This document shows positions 42,781-48,472 of a stretch of DNA of 64,000 bases, piece after piece. The notes under the pieces are model-generated. The model had not been told where the DNA came from. It worked only from the letters and a program-made list of their open reading frames with translations, and did not search any database. Both the position numbers and the translations under genes were made by a program. Source of the stretch: Limisphaerales bacterium (GTDB lineage Bacteria > Verrucomicrobiota > Verrucomicrobiia > Limisphaerales > DSYF01); assembly GCA_046290825.1 (NCBI GenBank), contig JBKBTZ010000005.1, positions 6,873 through 70,872 on the forward strand, written 5' to 3'. How positions within the stretch are numbered: the stretch's first letter is position 1; every line of letters starts with the position of its first letter.

Positions 42781-44058
42781 TCAGGCGCGGAAATACTTCC
42801 TGGGCCGGCGCGCCGGGGGGACGGCGTTTCGCGTGTCCACCAGCGGCATCGGGTAACCGGAGAAGTCGAATTGCTTGTAAGCGTCGTGGCCGGTGGAGAG
42901 GAGCAGCAGATCGTAGTCGGGCGTGATGGCGGGGACGGACTTGCGGCCCGCGTATTCGGCATGCTCGCGCGTCTTCGGAATCACCGGCACAAACGGGTCG
43001 TGATATTCGACCCTGGCGCCGAGGGCTTCGAGTTTCTGGATGAGCTTGTAGCTCGGCGATTCGCGGTCGTCGTCCACGTTGGCCTTGTAGGCGAGGCCGA
43101 GGATGAGGATGCGCGCGCCCTTCACAGATTTGCCCTCCTGGTTCAGCGCCTCGAACGCCACGCGCACCACGTGGTCGGGCATGGCGGTGTTGATTTCACC
43201 GGCCAGCTCGATGAAGCGCGTGTGCTGTCCGAACTGCCGCGCCTTCCACGTCAGATAGAACGGGTCAATCGGGATGCAATGTCCGCCGAGGCCGGGGCCG
43301 GGATAGAAGGGCATGAAACCAAACGGCTTGGTCTTCGCGGCTTCGATGACCTCCCAGATGTCTATCCCCATCGCGCCGTAGACGAGCTTGAGTTCGTTGA
43401 CGAGGGCGATGTTGACGGAGCGGAAAATGTTTTCGAGCAGCTTGGTCGCCTCGGCAGCGCGGCAGGAACTCACGGGGACGAGCTTTTGGATCGCCAGCCC
43501 GTAAAGCTCCATCGCCTTCGCCAGGCAGGCGGGCGTGTAGCCGCCCACGACTTTCGGAATGCTGGCCACCTTGCTGTCGGGGTTGCCCGGGTCCTCGCGC
43601 TCGGGAGAAAACGCGAGGTGAAAATCCGCGCCCGCCTTGAGGCCGGAACCGGCTTCCAGCACCTCGCGCAATTCGCCATCGGTGGTGCCGGGGTAGGTGG
43701 TGGATTCGAGCACGACGAGCACGCCCCGCCGCAGATGCGGCGCAAGCTGGCGGCCCGTGTTGAGCACATAGCTGAGGTCCGGTTCGCGGTATTCGTTGAG
43801 CGGCGTGGGAACGCAGAGGATGACGGCGTCCACGGACTGGACGCGGGCGAATTCGGACGACGCCTCGAGCTGACCGTTCTGACGCGCGGCGGCCACGGCG
43901 GCGGCGGGAACGTGTTTGATGTAAGACTGGCCGGCGTTGAGCGCCTCGATCTTGCGCGGGTCAATGTCCAGGCCCAGCACGCGGGCGCCGGAGCGGGCGA
44001 ATTGCAGCGCGAGCGGCAGGCCGACGTAACCGAGACCGACGATGGCGATGGACTTCAT
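42781..44058 (-). CDS. UDP-N-acetyl-hexosamine 6-dehydrogenase (WbpA/WecC family)
   Basis: GLGYVGLP, CVPTP, ESTTYPGTT, PGPGLGGHCIPIDP, YKANVDDDRESP. Confidence 0.93.
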   Translation of the reverse strand: MKSIAIVGLGYVGLPLALQFARSGARVLGLDIDPRKIEALNAGQSYIKHVPAAAVAAARQNGQLEASSEFARVQSVDAVILCVPTPLNEYREPDLSYVLNTGRQLAPHLRRGVLVVLESTTYPGTTDGELREVLEAGSGLKAGADFHLAFSPEREDPGNPDSKVASIPKVVGGYTPACLAKAMELYGLAIQKLVPVSSCRAAEATKLLENIFRSVNIALVNELKLVYGAMGIDIWEVIEAAKTKPFGFMPFYPGPGLGGHCIPIDPFYLTWKARQFGQHTRFIELAGEINTAMPDHVVRVAFEALNQEGKSVKGARILILGLAYKANVDDDRESPSYKLIQKLEALGARVEYHDPFVPVIPKTREHAEYAGRKSVPAITPDYDLLLLSTGHDAYKQFDFSGYPMPLVDTRNAVPPARRPRKYFRA

Positions 44059-44198: not shown

Positions 44199-44879
44199 TC
44201 AGTAAGCGAACTCGAACACCCCCTCGGCGACTGGATGAAATCGTTTCCAGTGGCGGCCATCGGGCATCTGGGAATCCTTTCGGGTGGGCTGGTAGTGGGC
44301 TGCTGCTCCACACACCACGCGGAAACCGTAACTGGCGGAGGAGTGTCGCCCGCCAAAAATGGTCAAATCCACCAGCTCTACCGGCGGCCCGTTGGTGACG
44401 AACCGCGAAGGCACGTAATGGATGCGATGGGGGCGCAGCGGCTCCAGTTCAGCGGGCAGGCCAAAAATGCGGAAGGTCTCCCAATCGGCGCTCCAGTTGG
44501 TGTTCCACCAGCCGGGTTCCCGCCGATACACCAGACCGTTCGTGCTCTTTTTCGGCCAAGCCAGTTCCAGGCCCTCGGGGTGCTCAGTCGCCAGCCGCTC
44601 GCACTCTCTCCGCAGCGCCTCCCAGCCGCCGACGCGTTCGACGCGGGCAAGCGCCTCCGCCCGCCATTCCCGCCGCAGGAAAAACCGATGCACGGTCTGA
44701 CCGGGGTCCATCGCCACCAGAAAGCCCGCCAGCCCCACCACCGCCCAGACCCAATGCACCACGGGATGCCGCTGCATCTGGTCTCGAACCTTGCGGGAAA
44801 CCGGTGCCGCCACGAGCCGGACGAGAAACAGAAAACCGGCCGCTGCTGCGATCAAGATGATCGGAAAATACGCGCGCAT
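44199..44879 (-). CDS. Hypothetical membrane protein (2 N-terminal TM segments)
   Basis: 226-aa ORF co-oriented with the operon; no recognised family. Confidence 0.6.
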   Translation of the reverse strand: MRAYFPIILIAAAAGFLFLVRLVAAPVSRKVRDQMQRHPVVHWVWAVVGLAGFLVAMDPGQTVHRFFLRREWRAEALARVERVGGWEALRRECERLATEHPEGLELAWPKKSTNGLVYRREPGWWNTNWSADWETFRIFGLPAELEPLRPHRIHYVPSRFVTNGPPVELVDLTIFGGRHSSASYGFRVVCGAAAHYQPTRKDSQMPDGRHWKRFHPVAEGVFEFAY

Positions 44880-45065
44880 GGATCCACTCCAGCATCTCAG
44901 CCGGAACGCCCAACCAACCGCTTCCGAAGCTGTTGAAACACTGCTCCCCGCCCGCCCACCCGTCCAGAGGAATGTTCAACGACGAGGTCCACCGGGCGCA
45001 GCCCAGTTCCTTCCCGGGCGAAAAACGATTGGGACGAAGGCAGTCTTCCGCTTCTCGAACCGTAT

Positions 45066-45175
45066 GGCAGGGCGCGTCACTCCGGGCGCGCCGTCGCGGG
45101 CTGGGGATGAACTGAGGCCGCTTGCGGCACGCAAAGAACTCCGATGAATCGCGAGCGGGCTGCACGCCCTACCTG
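45066..45175. repeat. Inverted pair of GTAG-type REP-like sequences
   Basis: GGCAGGGCGCGTCACTCCGGGCGCGCC ... GCACGCCCTACC (reverse complement GGTAGGGCGTGC). Confidence 0.55.
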
Positions 45176-45241
45176 CCGACAGGTTCGCGAGGGACGCATC
45201 CAGCATCCGAAAAAGTGAGATGTGCTCGTGCGGCGGCTCCG

Positions 45242-46231
45242 TCACCCGTTTGCCGCCGTGCGGCGGATGATTTCGTCGAGCGGCGTGGCGGGCGTGAAGC
45301 CGGTGACGCGCGACAGCTTGGCCACGGCCGGGCGGCGGCGGCGCATGTCCTCGAAGCCCGGCGCATACGCCTCGTGATACGGCACCAACTCGATGGTGGA
45401 ACGCGAGCCGAGCAGCGCAATCACCCGTCGGGCCAGCTCGAGGATGGTGACTTCCTCGGTCCCGCCGACATTGAAAACCTCGCCTCGCGCGGCGGGCGTG
45501 GCCGCCAGCCGGACGAGTGCCTCGACGGTGTCCTGCACGAAACCGAAGCAGCGGGTTTGCTGGCCGTCGCCATAGACGCGGAGCGGTTCGTTCCGGCGCG
45601 CGGCGGCGATGAAGCGCGGCAGCACCATGCCGTAGCGCCCCGTCTGGCGCGGGCCGACGGTGTTGAACAGCCGCGCGATGACCACGGGAAGGCCGCGTTC
45701 CTGCGCGAAGGCGAGTGCGAGAAATTCGTCCATCAGTTTCGAGCAGGCGTAGCTCCAGCGCGAATGGGTGGGCGGGCCGATGAGCAGGTCGTCCTCCTCG
45801 GCGAACTCGGCCTTGGCGCTCTTGCCATACACCTCGGAGGTCGAAGCCAGCACCACGGGCGTGCGCCGCACGGCGGCGGCCTCGAGCAGCGCCTGCGTTT
45901 CGCCGAGGTTGGTCTCGATGACGCGGATTGGCTCGCGCACGACCAGTTCCACGCCCACGGCGGCGGCGAGATGAAACACCTGGTCCGCGCCCGCCACGAG
46001 TTCGCCCAGTTCCGCGCAGCCGGACACGGTGCTTTCGATGAACCGCAATCCCGGATGCACGGCCACGGCTGCCAGGTTCTCGCGCCGGCCGGTCGAGAGG
46101 TCGTCAATCACCGTGACGCGGTGCCCGTCGGCCAGCAGCCGCTCGACCAGATGCGAGCCGATAAACCCGGCGCCGCCCGTTACAACACAGCGCGAAGATG
46201 GAGGAAGGAGGATGGAGGATGGGGCTGACAT
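45242..46231 (-). CDS. NAD-dependent nucleotide-sugar epimerase/dehydratase
   Basis: VTGGAGFIGSH, HLAAAVG, STSEVYG, YACSK, FNTVGPRQ. Confidence 0.93.
   Translation of the reverse strand: MSAPSSILLPPSSRCVVTGGAGFIGSHLVERLLADGHRVTVIDDLSTGRRENLAAVAVHPGLRFIESTVSGCAELGELVAGADQVFHLAAAVGVELVVREPIRVIETNLGETQALLEAAAVRRTPVVLASTSEVYGKSAKAEFAEEDDLLIGPPTHSRWSYACSKLMDEFLALAFAQERGLPVVIARLFNTVGPRQTGRYGMVLPRFIAAARRNEPLRVYGDGQQTRCFGFVQDTVEALVRLAATPAARGEVFNVGGTEEVTILELARRVIALLGSRSTIELVPYHEAYAPGFEDMRRRRPAVAKLSRVTGFTPATPLDEIIRRTAANG
46194..46224. repeat. 7-bp array (GGATGGA-like), downstream arm of the four-helix-bundle cassette
   Basis: gaagatggaggaaggaggatggaggatgggg; lies in the epimerase 5' end (SAPSSILLPPSS). 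Confidence 0.8.
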
Positions 46232-46235
46232 CGCG

Positions 46236-46619
46236 TCAACGGTCGGGCCGGCAAAAAGTGTCCGCGCGGTCAATCATCTTGTTCAAGGCCGCGCCGATGG
46301 ATTGCCAGGCGGCGTCCATTTCGCGGTGTTGCTGGGCGGTGATGTATCCGCAATCGAGCGCATCATCCAGCCAGGACTGGGTTTCGGTGGCTTCCCCCAG
46401 GGCGTCCGTCACCTTGCTGATGAACGAAGCGGGATAACGTCGGTGCGCCCAGGCCTCGGCAACCAGCGATTTGACGGCCCGGGACGAACGCCGAATCTGG
46501 TCGGTCAGCGAATACCGCTCCTCGACGGGAAATGTGCGTGTCACGCGGAACACCTTGAGGGCCTCCGCCCGCGCCTGCTCGTAAACGCGCAGATCTCGAA
46601 AGCTACGAATGATCGCCAT
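46236..46619 (-). CDS. Four-helix-bundle protein (23S rRNA IVS protein / bAvd-like family)
   Basis: SFRDLRVY, FPVEERYSLTDQIRRSSRAV, AEAW, GEATETQSWL, CGYI. Confidence 0.92.
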   Translation of the reverse strand: MAIIRSFRDLRVYEQARAEALKVFRVTRTFPVEERYSLTDQIRRSSRAVKSLVAEAWAHRRYPASFISKVTDALGEATETQSWLDDALDCGYITAQQHREMDAAWQSIGAALNKMIDRADTFCRPDR

Positions 46620-46644
46620 CTTCAATCCTCCATCCTCAATCCCC
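46615..46644. repeat. 7-bp array (TCCATCC-like), upstream arm of the four-helix-bundle cassette
   Basis: gccatcttcaatcctccatcctcaatcccc; spans the amidase stop and four-helix start. Confidence 0.8.
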
Positions 46645-47754
46645 GCGTTTGAGTCCCCCCACTCCCCTCGCCACCGCCTCCGCCAGACGCTGGCGGTATT
46701 CGGGCTGGTGGATGCGCTCCGCTTCGGCGGGATTTGACAGGTAACCCGCCTCGAGCAGGACGGCGGGACGGTTCTGGCCGCGCAGCACGGTCATGAATCG
46801 CGCCCGGCGCACGCCGCGGTCGGGCGCGCCGGTGGCCGCCAGCAGCTCGCGATGCAGCCGCACGGCCAGTTGCAGGTTGGCCGCGTCGAACCGGTTGTTC
46901 GGGAAGGTCAGGGCGGTGTTGTCCTCGTAACCACGCGCCAGGTTCGACGGCATGCCGAACGGCGTCAGGCAGTAAGTCTCGATGCCCGCGTGGCCGTTGC
47001 CGTTGGCGGAATTGAAATGCAGGCTGAGGAACAAATCCGCGCCTGCCGCCTCCGCAATCGCCACCCGCGCGGGCAGCGACACGTCCGCGTCGTTTGTGCG
47101 GGTCATGACCACCTGCCAGCCCTGCGCTTCCAGCAGCGGTTTCAACCGCTGCGCCCAGTCGAGCGTGTAATGCTTCTCGAGCCGGCCCGGGACGGGACTG
47201 CGTGTGCCGCTGTCCGAACCGCCGTGGCCCGCATCCACGACAATCACCCGCCGCCCGCCGTTCGGCGGCATCCACGGTTCGGCCAGCAGCGGGAGCAGAT
47301 TTTTTTCCACGTCCAGCCGGTGCAGCCAGAGCGAGCCGTTGCGGGCCTGGGGGGGGAACCCCAGCCGGATTTCGAGGCCGTTCCAGCGCGCGAGTTCGCT
47401 GTCGGCCTTGAAAGCGAACTGCCCGCGCGGCGTGGCGAGCGAAAACTGGGCGGCGTTCTGTCCGTTGCCAGCGGTGAGCCGCGTCAATGGCCCAAGCTGG
47501 TTGGAGGCCGCCCACGCGCCGAGTTCGAGCCACGTTTCCGCCGGAACTACGGGCAGAACCGGGGCCGCGGGCGGGGGAACCGGGAACGGAACGGGAACAG
47601 CGACGGTCGGTGGCGAAACCACGGCAGGAGCGGGCGTCAGGTCCACGTCCGGCGGCTGGCCTTTGCCGGGGCGTGACAACGGGGCGCAGCCGGCGAACAG
47701 CAACGCGGCGGCAACGAACAACAGCGGAATGCCCGGGCGGAACATGGCGCGCAT
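46636..47754 (-). CDS. N-acetylmuramoyl-L-alanine amidase (Amidase_3), lipoprotein
   Basis: Lipobox LFAGC, VDAGHGG, EK, SLHFN, LLEAGYLSN. Confidence 0.93.
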   Translation of the reverse strand: MRAMFRPGIPLLFVAAALLFAGCAPLSRPGKGQPPDVDLTPAPAVVSPPTVAVPVPFPVPPPAAPVLPVVPAETWLELGAWAASNQLGPLTRLTAGNGQNAAQFSLATPRGQFAFKADSELARWNGLEIRLGFPPQARNGSLWLHRLDVEKNLLPLLAEPWMPPNGGRRVIVVDAGHGGSDSGTRSPVPGRLEKHYTLDWAQRLKPLLEAQGWQVVMTRTNDADVSLPARVAIAEAAGADLFLSLHFNSANGNGHAGIETYCLTPFGMPSNLARGYEDNTALTFPNNRFDAANLQLAVRLHRELLAATGAPDRGVRRARFMTVLRGQNRPAVLLEAGYLSNPAEAERIHQPEYRQRLAEAVARGVGGLKRGD

Positions 47755-47788
47755 TGTGTGGGCGGCCCGGCCCCGCACAAGCCCGCAC

Positions 47789-48130
47789 TCAGCCGCCAAA
47801 CGCCCCCGCGTGCTCCGCGAAGCGGCGCTGAACGCTGCCGCACACCGACTCGCACAGGTTGAAAATGCCCCGGTCCGCGATGGCGTAGCGCACGCTGAGG
47901 CCGTCCTTGCGCCGCTTGAGGATGCCGGCGTCCACCAGCACCTGCAGATGCCGCGAGGCGTTGGCCTGCGTCAGGCCGGTGGCTTCCACAAGTTCGGTGA
48001 CGCTCAGCTCGCCGCCCTTGAGGGCGTGGATGAGCTTGAGCCGGCTGGCTTCGCTCAACGCCTTGAACCGGCGCGCGATGAGTTCCATCGCCTCGTCGGA
48101 CAGCTCCCGGGATTTGGATGATTTGGCCAT
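47789..48130 (-). CDS. ArsR/SmtB family transcriptional regulator
   Basis: FKALSEASRLKLI, SRHLQVL, RYAIAD, C-terminal CESVC. Confidence 0.92.
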   Translation of the reverse strand: MAKSSKSRELSDEAMELIARRFKALSEASRLKLIHALKGGELSVTELVEATGLTQANASRHLQVLVDAGILKRRKDGLSVRYAIADRGIFNLCESVCGSVQRRFAEHAGAFGG

Positions 48131-48202
48131 GCAACTTTGCCTGGCGGGTGCTTTTCCCGGCGCGGGTTGCCGCCCGGAAAAATTTCCGCTTGCGGGAACA
48201 CT

Positions 48203-48222
48203 ATATGAGCATATACTCATAT
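48203..48222. promoter_or_regulatory. Putative ArsR operator palindrome
   Basis: ATATGAG-CATATA-CTCATAT in the divergent intergenic region. Confidence 0.75.
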
Positions 48223-48259
48223 CGTCAAACGGAACTTTGCAACCAGGTCACATCCGATT

Positions 48260-48472
48260 ATGAAAATGGAAAATGCCATCCGCATCCTCGCCGGCACCAT
48301 GGTGCTGCTCAGCGTGGCCCTCACCCACTTCGTCAGCCCCTGGTGGCTGCTGCTCGCCGTGTTCGTCGGCGTGAACCTCATCCAGTCCGCCTTCACCGGG
48401 TTCTGCCCGGCGGAGAAGATCCTTGCGAAACTCGGCGTCGGCCAGGGGGGCAAATCATGCTGCGCGTCCTGA
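48260..48472 (+). CDS. DUF2892/YgaP-like membrane protein
   Basis: IRILAG, FVGVNLIQSAFTGFCP. Confidence 0.88.
   Translation: MKMENAIRILAGTMVLLSVALTHFVSPWWLLLAVFVGVNLIQSAFTGFCPAEKILAKLGVGQGGKSCCAS

Follow-up and report, generated by a model that had tools for sequence, protein, structure and literature searches.

A four-helix-bundle gene between complementary heptamer arrays at the amidase–epimerase junction of a Limisphaerales operon

In the window, the whole stretch of 64,000 nucleotides of Limisphaerales DNA analysed here, a small gene of the four-helix-bundle type is enclosed by two complementary arrays of heptamers. Judged against the corresponding sites of relatives, the 457-bp block made of array, gene and array is an insertion between two cell-envelope genes, at a formerly overlapping stop/start junction of an amidase–epimerase operon. 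With about as much confidence as doubt, we read it as a selfish small-gene cassette of the type known from 23S rRNA intervening sequences (IVSs), whose stem ties translation of both the cassette and the epimerase to translation of the amidase. The elements of the locus are listed below in the order of transcription.

46636–47799, minus strand: upstream host gene, N-acetylmuramoyl-L-alanine amidase (Amidase_3; Pfam E 4.4e-47)
46616–46647, minus strand: left (5') arm, 32 nt, about four GGAGGAT-type heptamers plus an outer CGCG (repeat search)
46236–46619, minus strand: four-helix-bundle gene, PF05635 23S_rRNA_IVP / TIGR02436, 127 aa (Pfam E 4.9e-26)
46191–46222, minus strand: right (3') arm, 32 nt, ATCCTCC-type heptamers plus an outer CGCG (repeat search)
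45242–46231, minus strand: downstream host gene, NAD-dependent epimerase/dehydratase (Pfam E 1.3e-54)
46191–46647, minus strand: whole inserted block, 457 bp, arm plus gene plus arm (absence from relatives' junctions; GC profile)

The amidase–epimerase junction with and without the cassette

The first-pass annotation had described arms that overlap the amidase stop, the cassette start and the first epimerase codons, and the coordinates agree with that description. The last codons of the amidase and its stop TGA (46638–46636) lie inside the left arm, along with the ATG of the cassette (46619–46617) and a GGAGGA Shine-Dalgarno-like motif. The cassette gene ends at TGA 46238–46236, and the epimerase ATG (46231–46229) follows 4 nt past this stop, at the inner edge of the right arm, which itself makes up epimerase codons 4–14 (translation PSSILLPPSSR). 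The block has a GC content of 0.62–0.645, against 0.68–0.72 for its flanks. Neither promoter-like nor terminator-like sites were found inside its 457 bp, which makes co-transcription with the operon probable.

The same annotation had placed an IVS/bAvd-like four-helix-bundle gene between amidase and epimerase, which the gene order and the profile matches bear out. On the strength of its scores against PF05635 (91.5 bits, cut-off 33.8) and TIGR02436 (86.2 bits, cut-off 24), the cassette protein is a member of this four-helix-bundle family, and its gene starts at the same ATG as in relatives (MAIIRSF...). Its relatives by sequence in the PDB are 2GSC and 2RLD (E 1.3e-7 and 3.7e-6, respectively), both of them five-chain entries. 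The matches to the bAvd model PF22296 (E 1.2e-4, 23 bits) and to the Avd model NF033474 (20.7 bits) stay below the curated cut-offs of 40 and 80, respectively, and no match to the reverse transcriptase profile RVT_1 was found in the host assembly (86.6% complete), nor does one adjoin the cassette. When 13 four-helix-bundle genes from this junction are compared, the 11 closest pairs whose dS is not saturated give dN/dS values of 0.04–0.14: the protein is under strong purifying selection.

Relatives in which the amidase adjoins the epimerase uniformly show an empty site: in 22 of 22 the junction measures 5–202 nt and contains neither a four-helix-bundle gene nor an array of even two units, as the earlier proposal of an inserted cassette would have it. 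Across 56 junctions without a four-helix-bundle match, the stop and start codons overlap in 34 (mostly as ATGA) and are spaced by 0–10 nt in a further 8. Because the empty junctions are free of arrays, the arms arrived with the gene; for the same reason the earlier suggestion of a mobile cassette that targets heptamer arrays finds no support.

In other genomes this junction is occupied by at least three cassette lineages, each with a different heptamer, and it also holds gutted or decayed cassette remnants. Of 21 junction cassettes, 11 have the amidase stop within the left array and 10 have it 0–9 nt ahead of the array. In all 20 junction cassettes of the GGAGGAT lineage the epimerase frame opens with an in-frame ATG at the inner edge of the right array and continues through it, which results in epimerase N-termini such as MPSSILHPPSS-(F/H)-VLVTGG. 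On the epimerase tree the cassette is patchily distributed, with 5 changes, and its confinement to a single clade is rejected by the AU test (p 0.0067). A metagenome scan with the epimerase gave a best match of 74% identity and no strain-level pair of filled and empty sites. We also considered a separate insertion of the right arm after codon 4, suggested by the 'MSAP' start that the window epimerase has in common with an empty-site relative (G006). Since the other junction cassettes read M-P-S-S directly, we take this sharing as a two-codon coincidence.

Pairing of the two arms

A repeat search recovered the two arms as an inverted repeat (46191–46222 and 46616–46647) of 32 nt each, 81% complementary and separated by 393 nt; both are heptamer arrays, each also recovered as a direct-repeat family. 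In the ungapped register the 32 positions form 26 Watson-Crick pairs, 2 G-U pairs and 4 mismatches, and the inner 29 hold 23 Watson-Crick and 2 G-U pairs, exactly the number counted in the first-pass annotation. The predicted energy of the arm–arm RNA duplex is -43.4 kcal/mol, while shuffling the right arm gives a mean of -23.8 (sd 3.6), with none of 1000 shuffles as low. When a 481-nt context is folded, 28 of the 32 arm positions pair with probabilities of 0.88–1.0, and a 1051-nt context leaves these values unchanged save for the outermost pair (0.78). Minimum-free-energy and centroid folds alike close off the gene by the arm stem, as the earlier claim of complementary enclosing arrays implied. 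The fold energy of the whole region is ordinary (z -0.82) and only the terminal stem stands out.

Flank complementarity was scored by local complement alignment; the window cassette scores 17.0, a value reached by 0.13% of 3000 random places of the same geometry in the same genome. An RNAduplex comparison of 160-nt against 220-nt flanks was dropped, as random controls equalled cassettes in this 65% GC genome. The pairing extends to outer bases that are not part of the repeats (window, CGCG...CGCG; relatives, AAACGAG...CTCGTTT).

We infer a model of translational coupling at this site from the positions of these elements. On the operon transcript the arms would pair as a 32-bp stem, one strand of which would comprise the amidase stop, the cassette ribosome-binding motif and the cassette ATG, and the other epimerase codons 4–14, directly past the epimerase ATG. 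Ribosomes ending the amidase would melt the stem and thereby free the starts of both cassette and epimerase, the insert would then be expressed only together with the host operon, and the ancestral coupling through the ATGA overlap would be kept across the 457-bp insertion. The first-pass annotation had proposed that the stem gates downstream translation: its geometry fits, in that the upstream stop and the downstream start lie in or against the two stem strands, while the gating itself keeps the standing of a prediction from position.

Heptamer constancy and spread of the design

The arms could also act at the level of DNA, as terminal inverted repeats or as hairpin or cruciform ends of a mobile element that are read by a sequence-specific factor. 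This factor could be the cargo protein, in a REPIN/RAYT-like manner, and RNA folding would be a by-product; we regard this as a possible reading, though not the one we would expect to prevail. Support for it comes, among other things, from the heptamer itself. Synonymous differences between the window gene and its relatives amount to 0.61–0.77 and are thus saturated, and our sequence comparisons show that the heptamer is nevertheless conserved across cassettes. The arms of different cassettes cross-pair with a mean score of 18.9 within a clade and of 7.1 between clades: each clade has a heptamer of its own, and within a protein clade one arm can stand in for another. With fixed flanks, the complementarity of a cassette's own arms (19.55) is close to that of cross-cassette pairs (18.92), 680 of 5000 permutations being as high, and among 19 right flanks that of the window comes 15th. 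This fixed-flank permutation test therefore detects no cassette-by-cassette co-variation of the arms, so that it is the heptamer sequence itself that is conserved, beyond what pairing alone explains. Mismatches number 57 of the G-U type against 74 of the A-C type overall, and 17 against 42 in the window's GGAGGAT clade. The G-U type does not outnumber the A-C type, the mismatches thus give no sign of selection for pairing of the sense RNA, and such wobble-type mismatches without strand bias are consistent with arms that act as DNA. The occupation of one junction by three lineages with different heptamers and the patchy presence on the epimerase tree point the same way, but the patchiness could also stem from homologous exchange of the flanking genes.

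The design is not confined to the junction, nor to one cargo. Complementary flanks are strongly enriched around homologues over genome controls: 6 of 11 PF05635 paralogues in the host genome score at least 16.5, a score reached by at most 0.2% of 3000 controls, and the arms are unclear in 5 of 11 (score 12 or less). Among related loci, 54 of 77 score at least 14, although loci of one clade share descent and such counts overstate the independent evidence. All three GxxExxY nuclease genes of the host genome are likewise flanked by complementary arrays, with scores of 23–27, so that two unrelated cargo families have the design in common, which also favours arms that work as DNA. Outside two big clades, 26 of 34 unambiguous flank calls put cassette and neighbour in the same orientation, and 21 further calls are ambiguous; calling the strand by the longest ORF fails in the window's own genome. 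A search of the literature, which covered few subscription journals and no supplements, returned no paper on heptamer-array arms around PF05635 or GxxExxY genes at sites other than rRNA.

Gene-less hairpins made of such arrays are present in the host genome as well. Tandem Repeats Finder (TRF) at low thresholds gave 8200 arrays, which were filtered before use. Two cassette heptamers recur at gene-less loci, AACATCC at 14 others and CGAAATC at 10 (shuffled units, 0–3), and the solo hairpins have one fixed polarity, both in favour of arms read as DNA. Many solo copies accompany only 2 of the 14 cassettes of the host genome. Against this reading, the window heptamer occurs elsewhere at just 2 loci, one solo hairpin and one lone array (shuffled units, 0–2). 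Internal deletion by itself can yield gene-less hairpins (L174, L148). Furthermore, no recombinase or transposase lies within the block, and inspection by eye revealed no target-site duplication at the window cassette and no direct duplication at the 25 solo hairpin sites listed (one, which contained N, was skipped). No two cassettes of the host genome share arms and none are near-identical copies, so that nothing points to recent movement.

It seems doubtful to us that the block is a true mRNA intervening sequence, whose 32-bp stem would be cleaved by RNase III to release the cassette RNA as in 23S rRNA and to separate the messages of amidase, four-helix-bundle protein and epimerase. PMC4990558 describes the Coxiella burnetii 23S rRNA IVS (helix 45) as a 428-nt insert with a 28-bp terminal stem and a PF05635-type ORF in its loop, cut mid-stem by RNase III and regarded as selfish, with an ORF reported to be decaying and not expressed. 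The window cassette resembles this processed element in size and layout, its stem is of sufficient length for RNase III, and the host genome has an RNase III gene. However, the right arm has the epimerase ATG on its loop side, and a cut in mid-stem would sever this start codon from its frame; all 20 junction cassettes of the lineage are arranged in this way, so that a conserved host gene would be shut off if excision were routine. The missing G-U excess also speaks against excision, as does a duplex that four mismatches break into runs of 9, 5, 7, 2 and 5 pairs.

In a wider reading, which we consider unlikely, heptamer-armed cassettes form one large undescribed class of selfish operon elements whose cargo recognises its own arrays, and rRNA IVSs are the subset that landed in rRNA. 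The four-helix-bundle protein or the GxxExxY nuclease may recognise the 7–8-nt arrays of its own clade, whether in the form of hairpin DNA or of an RNA stem. Such recognition may hold the heptamer constant over long periods, steer spread to operon junctions and seed gene-less hairpins as REPIN/RAYT systems do. A period of 7 or 8 nt is not a multiple of three, and an array would thus offer stop and start signals in all three frames inward and open frames outward, so that an insert at any junction would leave both neighbours translatable.

Finally, it is very improbable that the complementarity is incidental, the left array being ribosome-binding and start motifs and the right array a Pro/Ser-rich coding extension of the epimerase, since, although repeated GGAGGAT yields GGAGG and then ATG at good spacing and the right array is translated, the heptamers of other clades (GTGAGAA, AACATCC, CAGTTGC) lack such motifs and their arms are complementary all the same, complementary flanks are very strongly enriched over the genome controls, and the non-repeat outer bases pair.

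Significance and comparison with known systems

Both PF05635 and GxxExxY comprise a very large number of small genes, which often bear no annotation beyond 'hypothetical', and we know of no function for either family. The locus links a PF05635 gene to a defined and testable anatomy of arms, stem and the stop and start codons of its neighbours. It shows the cassette to be an insertion under selection, at an operon junction colonised by three lineages and strewn with gutted remnants. The mechanism is narrowed on two sides: it is the heptamer sequence itself that is conserved, not the pairing only, and routine excision by RNase III would cost the host its epimerase. If either the coupling or the self-recognition is true, the 35-year-old puzzle of rRNA IVSs would turn into a single instance of a more general parasite of operons, and unexplained heptamer repeat arrays in many phyla would gain an origin.

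The selfish cassette coupled to amidase translation that we favour has its closest counterpart in the 23S rRNA IVSs of Coxiella and Leptospira (S23p ORF), which likewise have a PF05635-family ORF in the loop of a stem of about 30 bp and a total length of about 430–460 nt. The window cassette differs in that it sits between two protein genes of an operon and not in an rRNA helix, and in that its arms are tandem heptamer arrays overlapping the stop and start codons of the neighbours. Its ORF is under strong purifying selection, whereas the Coxiella ORF is described there as decaying, and RNase III processing is demonstrated for the rRNA element, whereas the stem in the window is predicted from sequence.

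The accessory protein bAvd of diversity-generating retroelements (DGRs) belongs to the same four-helix-bundle superfamily and is distant by sequence; the window protein, in contrast, falls below both Avd cut-offs and has an amidase and an epimerase as neighbours in place of a reverse transcriptase. REPIN/RAYT systems, reportedly set out by Bertels and Rainey in 2011, are alike in having a single gene between inverted copies of a short repeat that, as with some cassettes of the host genome, also occurs genome-wide as gene-less hairpin doublets. Here, however, the cargo is a PF05635 protein and not a REP-associated Y1 transposase, the repeats are tandem 7–8-nt arrays and not REP palindromes, and solo copies are plentiful for few of the cassettes. 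The predicted coupling works like that of the MS2 coat and replicase genes, as a comparison of operation only. In MS2, translation of the upstream frame melts a long-range helix that masks the downstream start, whereas the helix in the window would be supplied by an inserted cassette and is predicted to gate two starts at once.

The armed gene and its operon

The PF05635 gene, whose product belongs to the NCBIfam family TIGR02436 'four helix bundle protein', lies between an amidase and an epimerase gene and is enclosed by two short tandem arrays, the arms. The following features are read on the minus strand.

46636-47799, minus: N-acetylmuramoyl-L-alanine amidase (Pfam Amidase_3, E 4.4e-47)
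46616-46647, minus: left arm, 32 nt, short tandem array
46638-46636, minus: amidase stop TGA, inside the left arm
46619-46617, minus: cassette-gene ATG, inside the left arm
46231-46229, minus: epimerase ATG, at the right arm's inner edge and 4 nt past the cassette-gene stop
46191-46222, minus: right arm, 32 nt, short tandem array, translated as epimerase residues 4-14
45242-46231, minus: NAD-dependent epimerase (Pfam, E 1.3e-54)

The observation of a heptamer-armed gene is confirmed, and these coordinates bear out the claim of the first-pass annotation that the arms cover the amidase stop, the cassette start and early epimerase codons. A repeat search gave 81% arm complementarity with 393 nt between the arms. 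In register, the arms form 26 Watson-Crick and 2 G-U pairs with 4 mismatches, and the inner 29 positions reproduce the earlier count of 23 of 29 plus two G-U. The arm RNA duplex reaches -43.4 kcal/mol, as opposed to a mean of -23.8 (sd 3.6) with the right arm shuffled (0/1000 as low). Folding, which the annotation had proposed as a check, yields a predicted arm stem that closes the gene in both the MFE and the centroid structure, with pair probabilities of 0.88-1.0 at 28 of the 32 positions when 481 nt are folded; extending this context to 1051 nt lowers the outermost arm pair alone, to 0.78. The fold energy of the entire region is unexceptional (z -0.82).

The GC content of the block 46191-46647 is 0.62-0.645 and that of its flanks 0.68-0.72. 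A scan of 45000-48400 found no promoter-like or terminator-like site within the block, the sole promoter-like site (48228-48200) being upstream of an ArsR-family gene. Sequence comparison links the cassette protein to two solved structures only, 2GSC and 2RLD, both of them five-chain depositions. Elsewhere in the window, a 226-aa ORF (44199-44879, minus) without a Pfam match separates the epimerase from a UDP-glucose/GDP-mannose dehydrogenase gene (42781-44058).

Insertion and turnover at the amidase-epimerase junction

Relatives with an empty junction, for which a comparison had also been suggested, are common. The epimerase search covered 40 relatives from within the family and order, and 29 loci besides the window's own were fetched. 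The amidase is directly upstream in 22 of these; all 22 junctions span 5-202 nt and lack the four-helix-bundle gene, and none holds even two tandem GGAGGAT (left-arm) or ATCCTCC (right-arm) units. Among 56 junctions without a four-helix-bundle match, pooled from relatives and metagenome loci, stop and start codons overlap in 34, mostly as ATGA. Spacing is 0-10 nt in 8 and 11-30 nt in 1; a further 8 junctions belong to other classes, 3 lack an assignable start and 2 have a gap above 140 nt. Because overlapping or short spacing prevails where the gene is missing, the ancestral junction was a translationally coupled overlap to which the 457-bp block is extra, and the comparison shows an insertion that brought its own arms.

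The epimerase of one empty-site relative (L014, genome G006) begins MSAPQHVVVTGG, and that of the window begins MSAP-SSILLPPSSRC-VVTGG (46220-46231). The shared MSAP, which would be relevant in the case of a separately inserted right arm, is probably due to chance, since the start is a plain M-P-S-S in other cassettes.

A cassette is present at this junction in 16 of 45 epimerase loci. On the epimerase tree its presence requires 5 changes; well-supported branches force at least 3 of these. The window epimerase clusters with three empty genomes from its family (98% SH-aLRT), and a single clade of cassette-bearers is rejected (AU test, p 0.0067). In the four-helix-bundle tree one group (90% support) takes in 13 of the 15 junction genes; the genes of loci L055 and L058 belong to another (94%), although their epimerases group with those of L042, L043, L045 and L050 (99%). 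The epimerase fusion point is constant across the GGAGGAT lineage (...PSS-(F/H)-VLVTGG) and, because it is identical everywhere, the patchiness of this lineage fits a single origin with later exchange or loss better than it fits recurrent de novo insertion.

Of 80 metagenome loci retrieved with the epimerase and sorted by what lies upstream, 12 were too short there. The amidase is upstream in 39, of which 7 have a junction four-helix-bundle gene; 28 have neither, and 1 has the four-helix-bundle gene in a sequence too short for the amidase. Behind the amidase, L129 carries a distinct PF05635 gene (E 6.2e-14) with GTGATGC arms, missed by the tblastn query and hence outside the 7, and L161 carries another (E 5.9e-37, 31% identity) with CAGTTGC arms. 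Since both hold different PF05635 genes and arms, at least three heptamer lineages have colonised the junction. Four 'empty' metagenome junctions are remnants: L174 and L148 retain both arms with most of the gene gone, L146 keeps right-arm arrays alone, and L158 a mini-hairpin. Truncated four-helix-bundle genes occur in L112 and L131. The junction is a hot spot at which cassettes go through a life cycle.

Several other loci deserve mention. In L173 a CGATTGC heptamer array follows the amidase stop at an otherwise gene-less junction, possibly a leftover from a fourth cassette lineage. The metagenome locus L153 (640-1235) has a 548-nt amidase-epimerase gap with no four-helix-bundle gene and two copies of a ~150-nt repeat with the peptide motif ...MRKSE..S.SMNL... 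In the genome contigs L053 and L061, a GGAGGAT-type cassette sits off the junction, ~700 nt past the operon start and in the opposite orientation. Contigs labelled Bifidobacteriaceae or Candidatus Acidoferrum (L047, L049, L050, L057) carry a Verrucomicrobia-type amidase-cassette-epimerase locus or its cassette; these labels look like binning or labelling errors.

Inverted arrays at other loci and constraint on the heptamer

The window genome (3.88 Mb, 65.5% GC, 315 contigs, 86.6% complete) contains 11 PF05635 matches. Each gene was scored by how well the 200 nt preceding it complement, in a local alignment, the 260 nt that follow it, with 3000 random places of the same geometry as control (99.9th percentile, 17). 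The enrichment of complementary flanks that the annotation had put forward for checking is found: 6 of the 11 paralogues score at least 16.5 (window cassette, 17.0), as opposed to at most 0.2% of controls, and 5 score 12 or less. The repeat unit is different in every paralogue. Genes of an unrelated family, PDDEXK_3 / GxxExxY, are similarly bracketed in 3 of 3 cases (scores 23-27), and dozens of inverted-heptamer hairpins of 60-115 nt, with loops of 10-45 nt, contain no gene. These lie on the following contigs of the genome.

C4:2364-2711, C20:6504-6845, C248:24520-24873: GxxExxY / PDDEXK_3 nuclease genes (L122-L124), inverted 7-8-nt arrays
C22:26803-26906, C43:4528-4642, C154:16305-16370, C3:1873-1937, C250 near 24923: examples of gene-less hairpins

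The hairpins form families (AACATCC, GTGATGC, CGAAATC and others) of nearly uniform 5'-to-3' polarity, with one reversed (C252:25341-25400). Two families use a cassette's unit: AACATCC recurs at 14 further loci and CGAAATC at 10 (shuffled units, 0-3). The window's unit recurs at 2 loci, a true hairpin on C250 and a lone array on C244, and the 11 other cassette units tested recur at 0-2 each. Judging from the remnants, gutting of junction cassettes can be one route to such hairpins.

Relatives of the window protein are encoded at 80 loci in one-genome-per-species contigs, 77 of them with enough flank. Scores reach at least 14 in 54 and at least 16.5 in 46, in Verrucomicrobiota, Cyanobacteria, Chloroflexi, Bacteroidota, Acidobacteriota and others; 30 of the 54 come from two clades and are therefore not independent. 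Among the 54, the arms repeat every 7 nt in 35, every 8 in 13, every 9 in 3 and every 4 in 1, with an unclear period in 2. The coding-strand upstream arm is purine-rich (>0.6) in 52 of 54, a bias that, because the arms are inverted repeats, amounts to an inside/outside polarity identical on both strands. Read inward, the left arm has stops in all three frames at 23 loci; read outward, the right arm is stop-free in every frame at 44. The stop-codon excess over composition-matched shuffles is modest (mean 1.72 frames with a stop vs 1.43).

The cassette protein is functional: among 13 junction genes, dN/dS is 0.04-0.14 in the 11 closest pairs with unsaturated dS. Synonymous differences between the window gene and the other 12 are saturated (0.61-0.77). 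Heptamer type tracks protein clade, with GGAGGAT-type arrays on nearly all relatives of at least 64% protein identity, GTGAGAA arrays in a clade at ~60%, and other units on remoter proteins.

Selected pairing in sense RNA should leave more G-U than A-C mismatches, as an A-C becomes G-U only in antisense. The arms scoring at least 14 show 57 G-U-type and 74 A-C-type mismatches (GGAGGAT clade, 17 vs 42; GTGAGAA clade, 11 vs 7; others, 29 vs 25), and a sense-strand signal is absent. When the flanks are fixed, the left flank of a cassette pairs with its own right flank no better than with those of other same-clade cassettes. This holds in the GGAGGAT clade (self 19.55, cross 18.92; 680/5000 permutations as high), where the window cassette ranks 15th of 19, and in the GTGAGAA clade (21.71 and 20.35; 362/5000 as high). 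Flanks from different clades score 7.1. Because arms are interchangeable within a clade, wobble signal is absent and synonymous sites are saturated, the heptamer sequence itself is maintained, beyond mere complementarity. Pairing alone fails to explain this constancy, which reflects either a clade-specific factor or, for GGAGGAT, its ribosome-binding-plus-ATG content.

Proposed translational coupling and known intervening sequences

In 11 of 21 junction cassettes the left array contains the amidase stop, and in the other 10 the stop precedes the array by 0-9 nt. All 20 cassettes of the GGAGGAT lineage have an in-frame ATG at the right array's inner edge, with the epimerase frame running through the array; in L129 the epimerase GTG overlaps the four-helix-bundle stop and the frame reads through both arrays. 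From this conserved geometry we infer that coupling through the arm stem is most likely how the cassette works here. In that stem the end of the amidase gene and the start of the small gene would share one strand, opposite the opening codons of the epimerase. On reaching the amidase stop, a terminating ribosome would melt the left arm and so expose both the epimerase initiation region and the ribosome-binding site and ATG of the small gene; the insert would be co-expressed with the host operon and the old ATGA coupling retained over 457 bp. Outside the two large clades, 26 of the 34 unambiguous flank calls (21 more were ambiguous) put cassette and neighbour in the same orientation, which fits dependence on host transcription.

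As the window genome has an RNase III gene, a mid-stem cut of the cassette transcript by RNase III may occur as a cost or as a regulator; however, such a cut would separate the epimerase ATG from its reading frame, and harmless excision is ruled out here for that reason. A role in a diversity-generating retroelement is unsupported because the assembly, at 86.6% completeness, yields no reverse transcriptase.

We conclude that the block is an inserted, selectively maintained cassette of the 23S rRNA intervening-sequence (IVS) type in an operon. A literature search of main texts, with few subscription journals, returned no account of PF05635 or GxxExxY genes as heptamer-armed cassettes outside rRNA. 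In the available text of a survey of rRNA insertions in the candidate phyla radiation, 23S_rRNA_IVP is functionally uncharacterised (PMC11270868), and a passage of a retroelement paper notes the resemblance of PF05635 to Avd (PMC10053308). The closest description is that of the Coxiella IVS, an element of 428 nt that RNase III excises, with cuts mapped mid-stem; its terminal stem measures 28 bp and its loop holds an S23p ORF, and the authors restate older suggestions that IVSs are mobile-element remnants (PMC4990558, available sections). There the stem is cut and the insert leaves the RNA, whereas at the window's stem the same cut would cost the epimerase its ATG.
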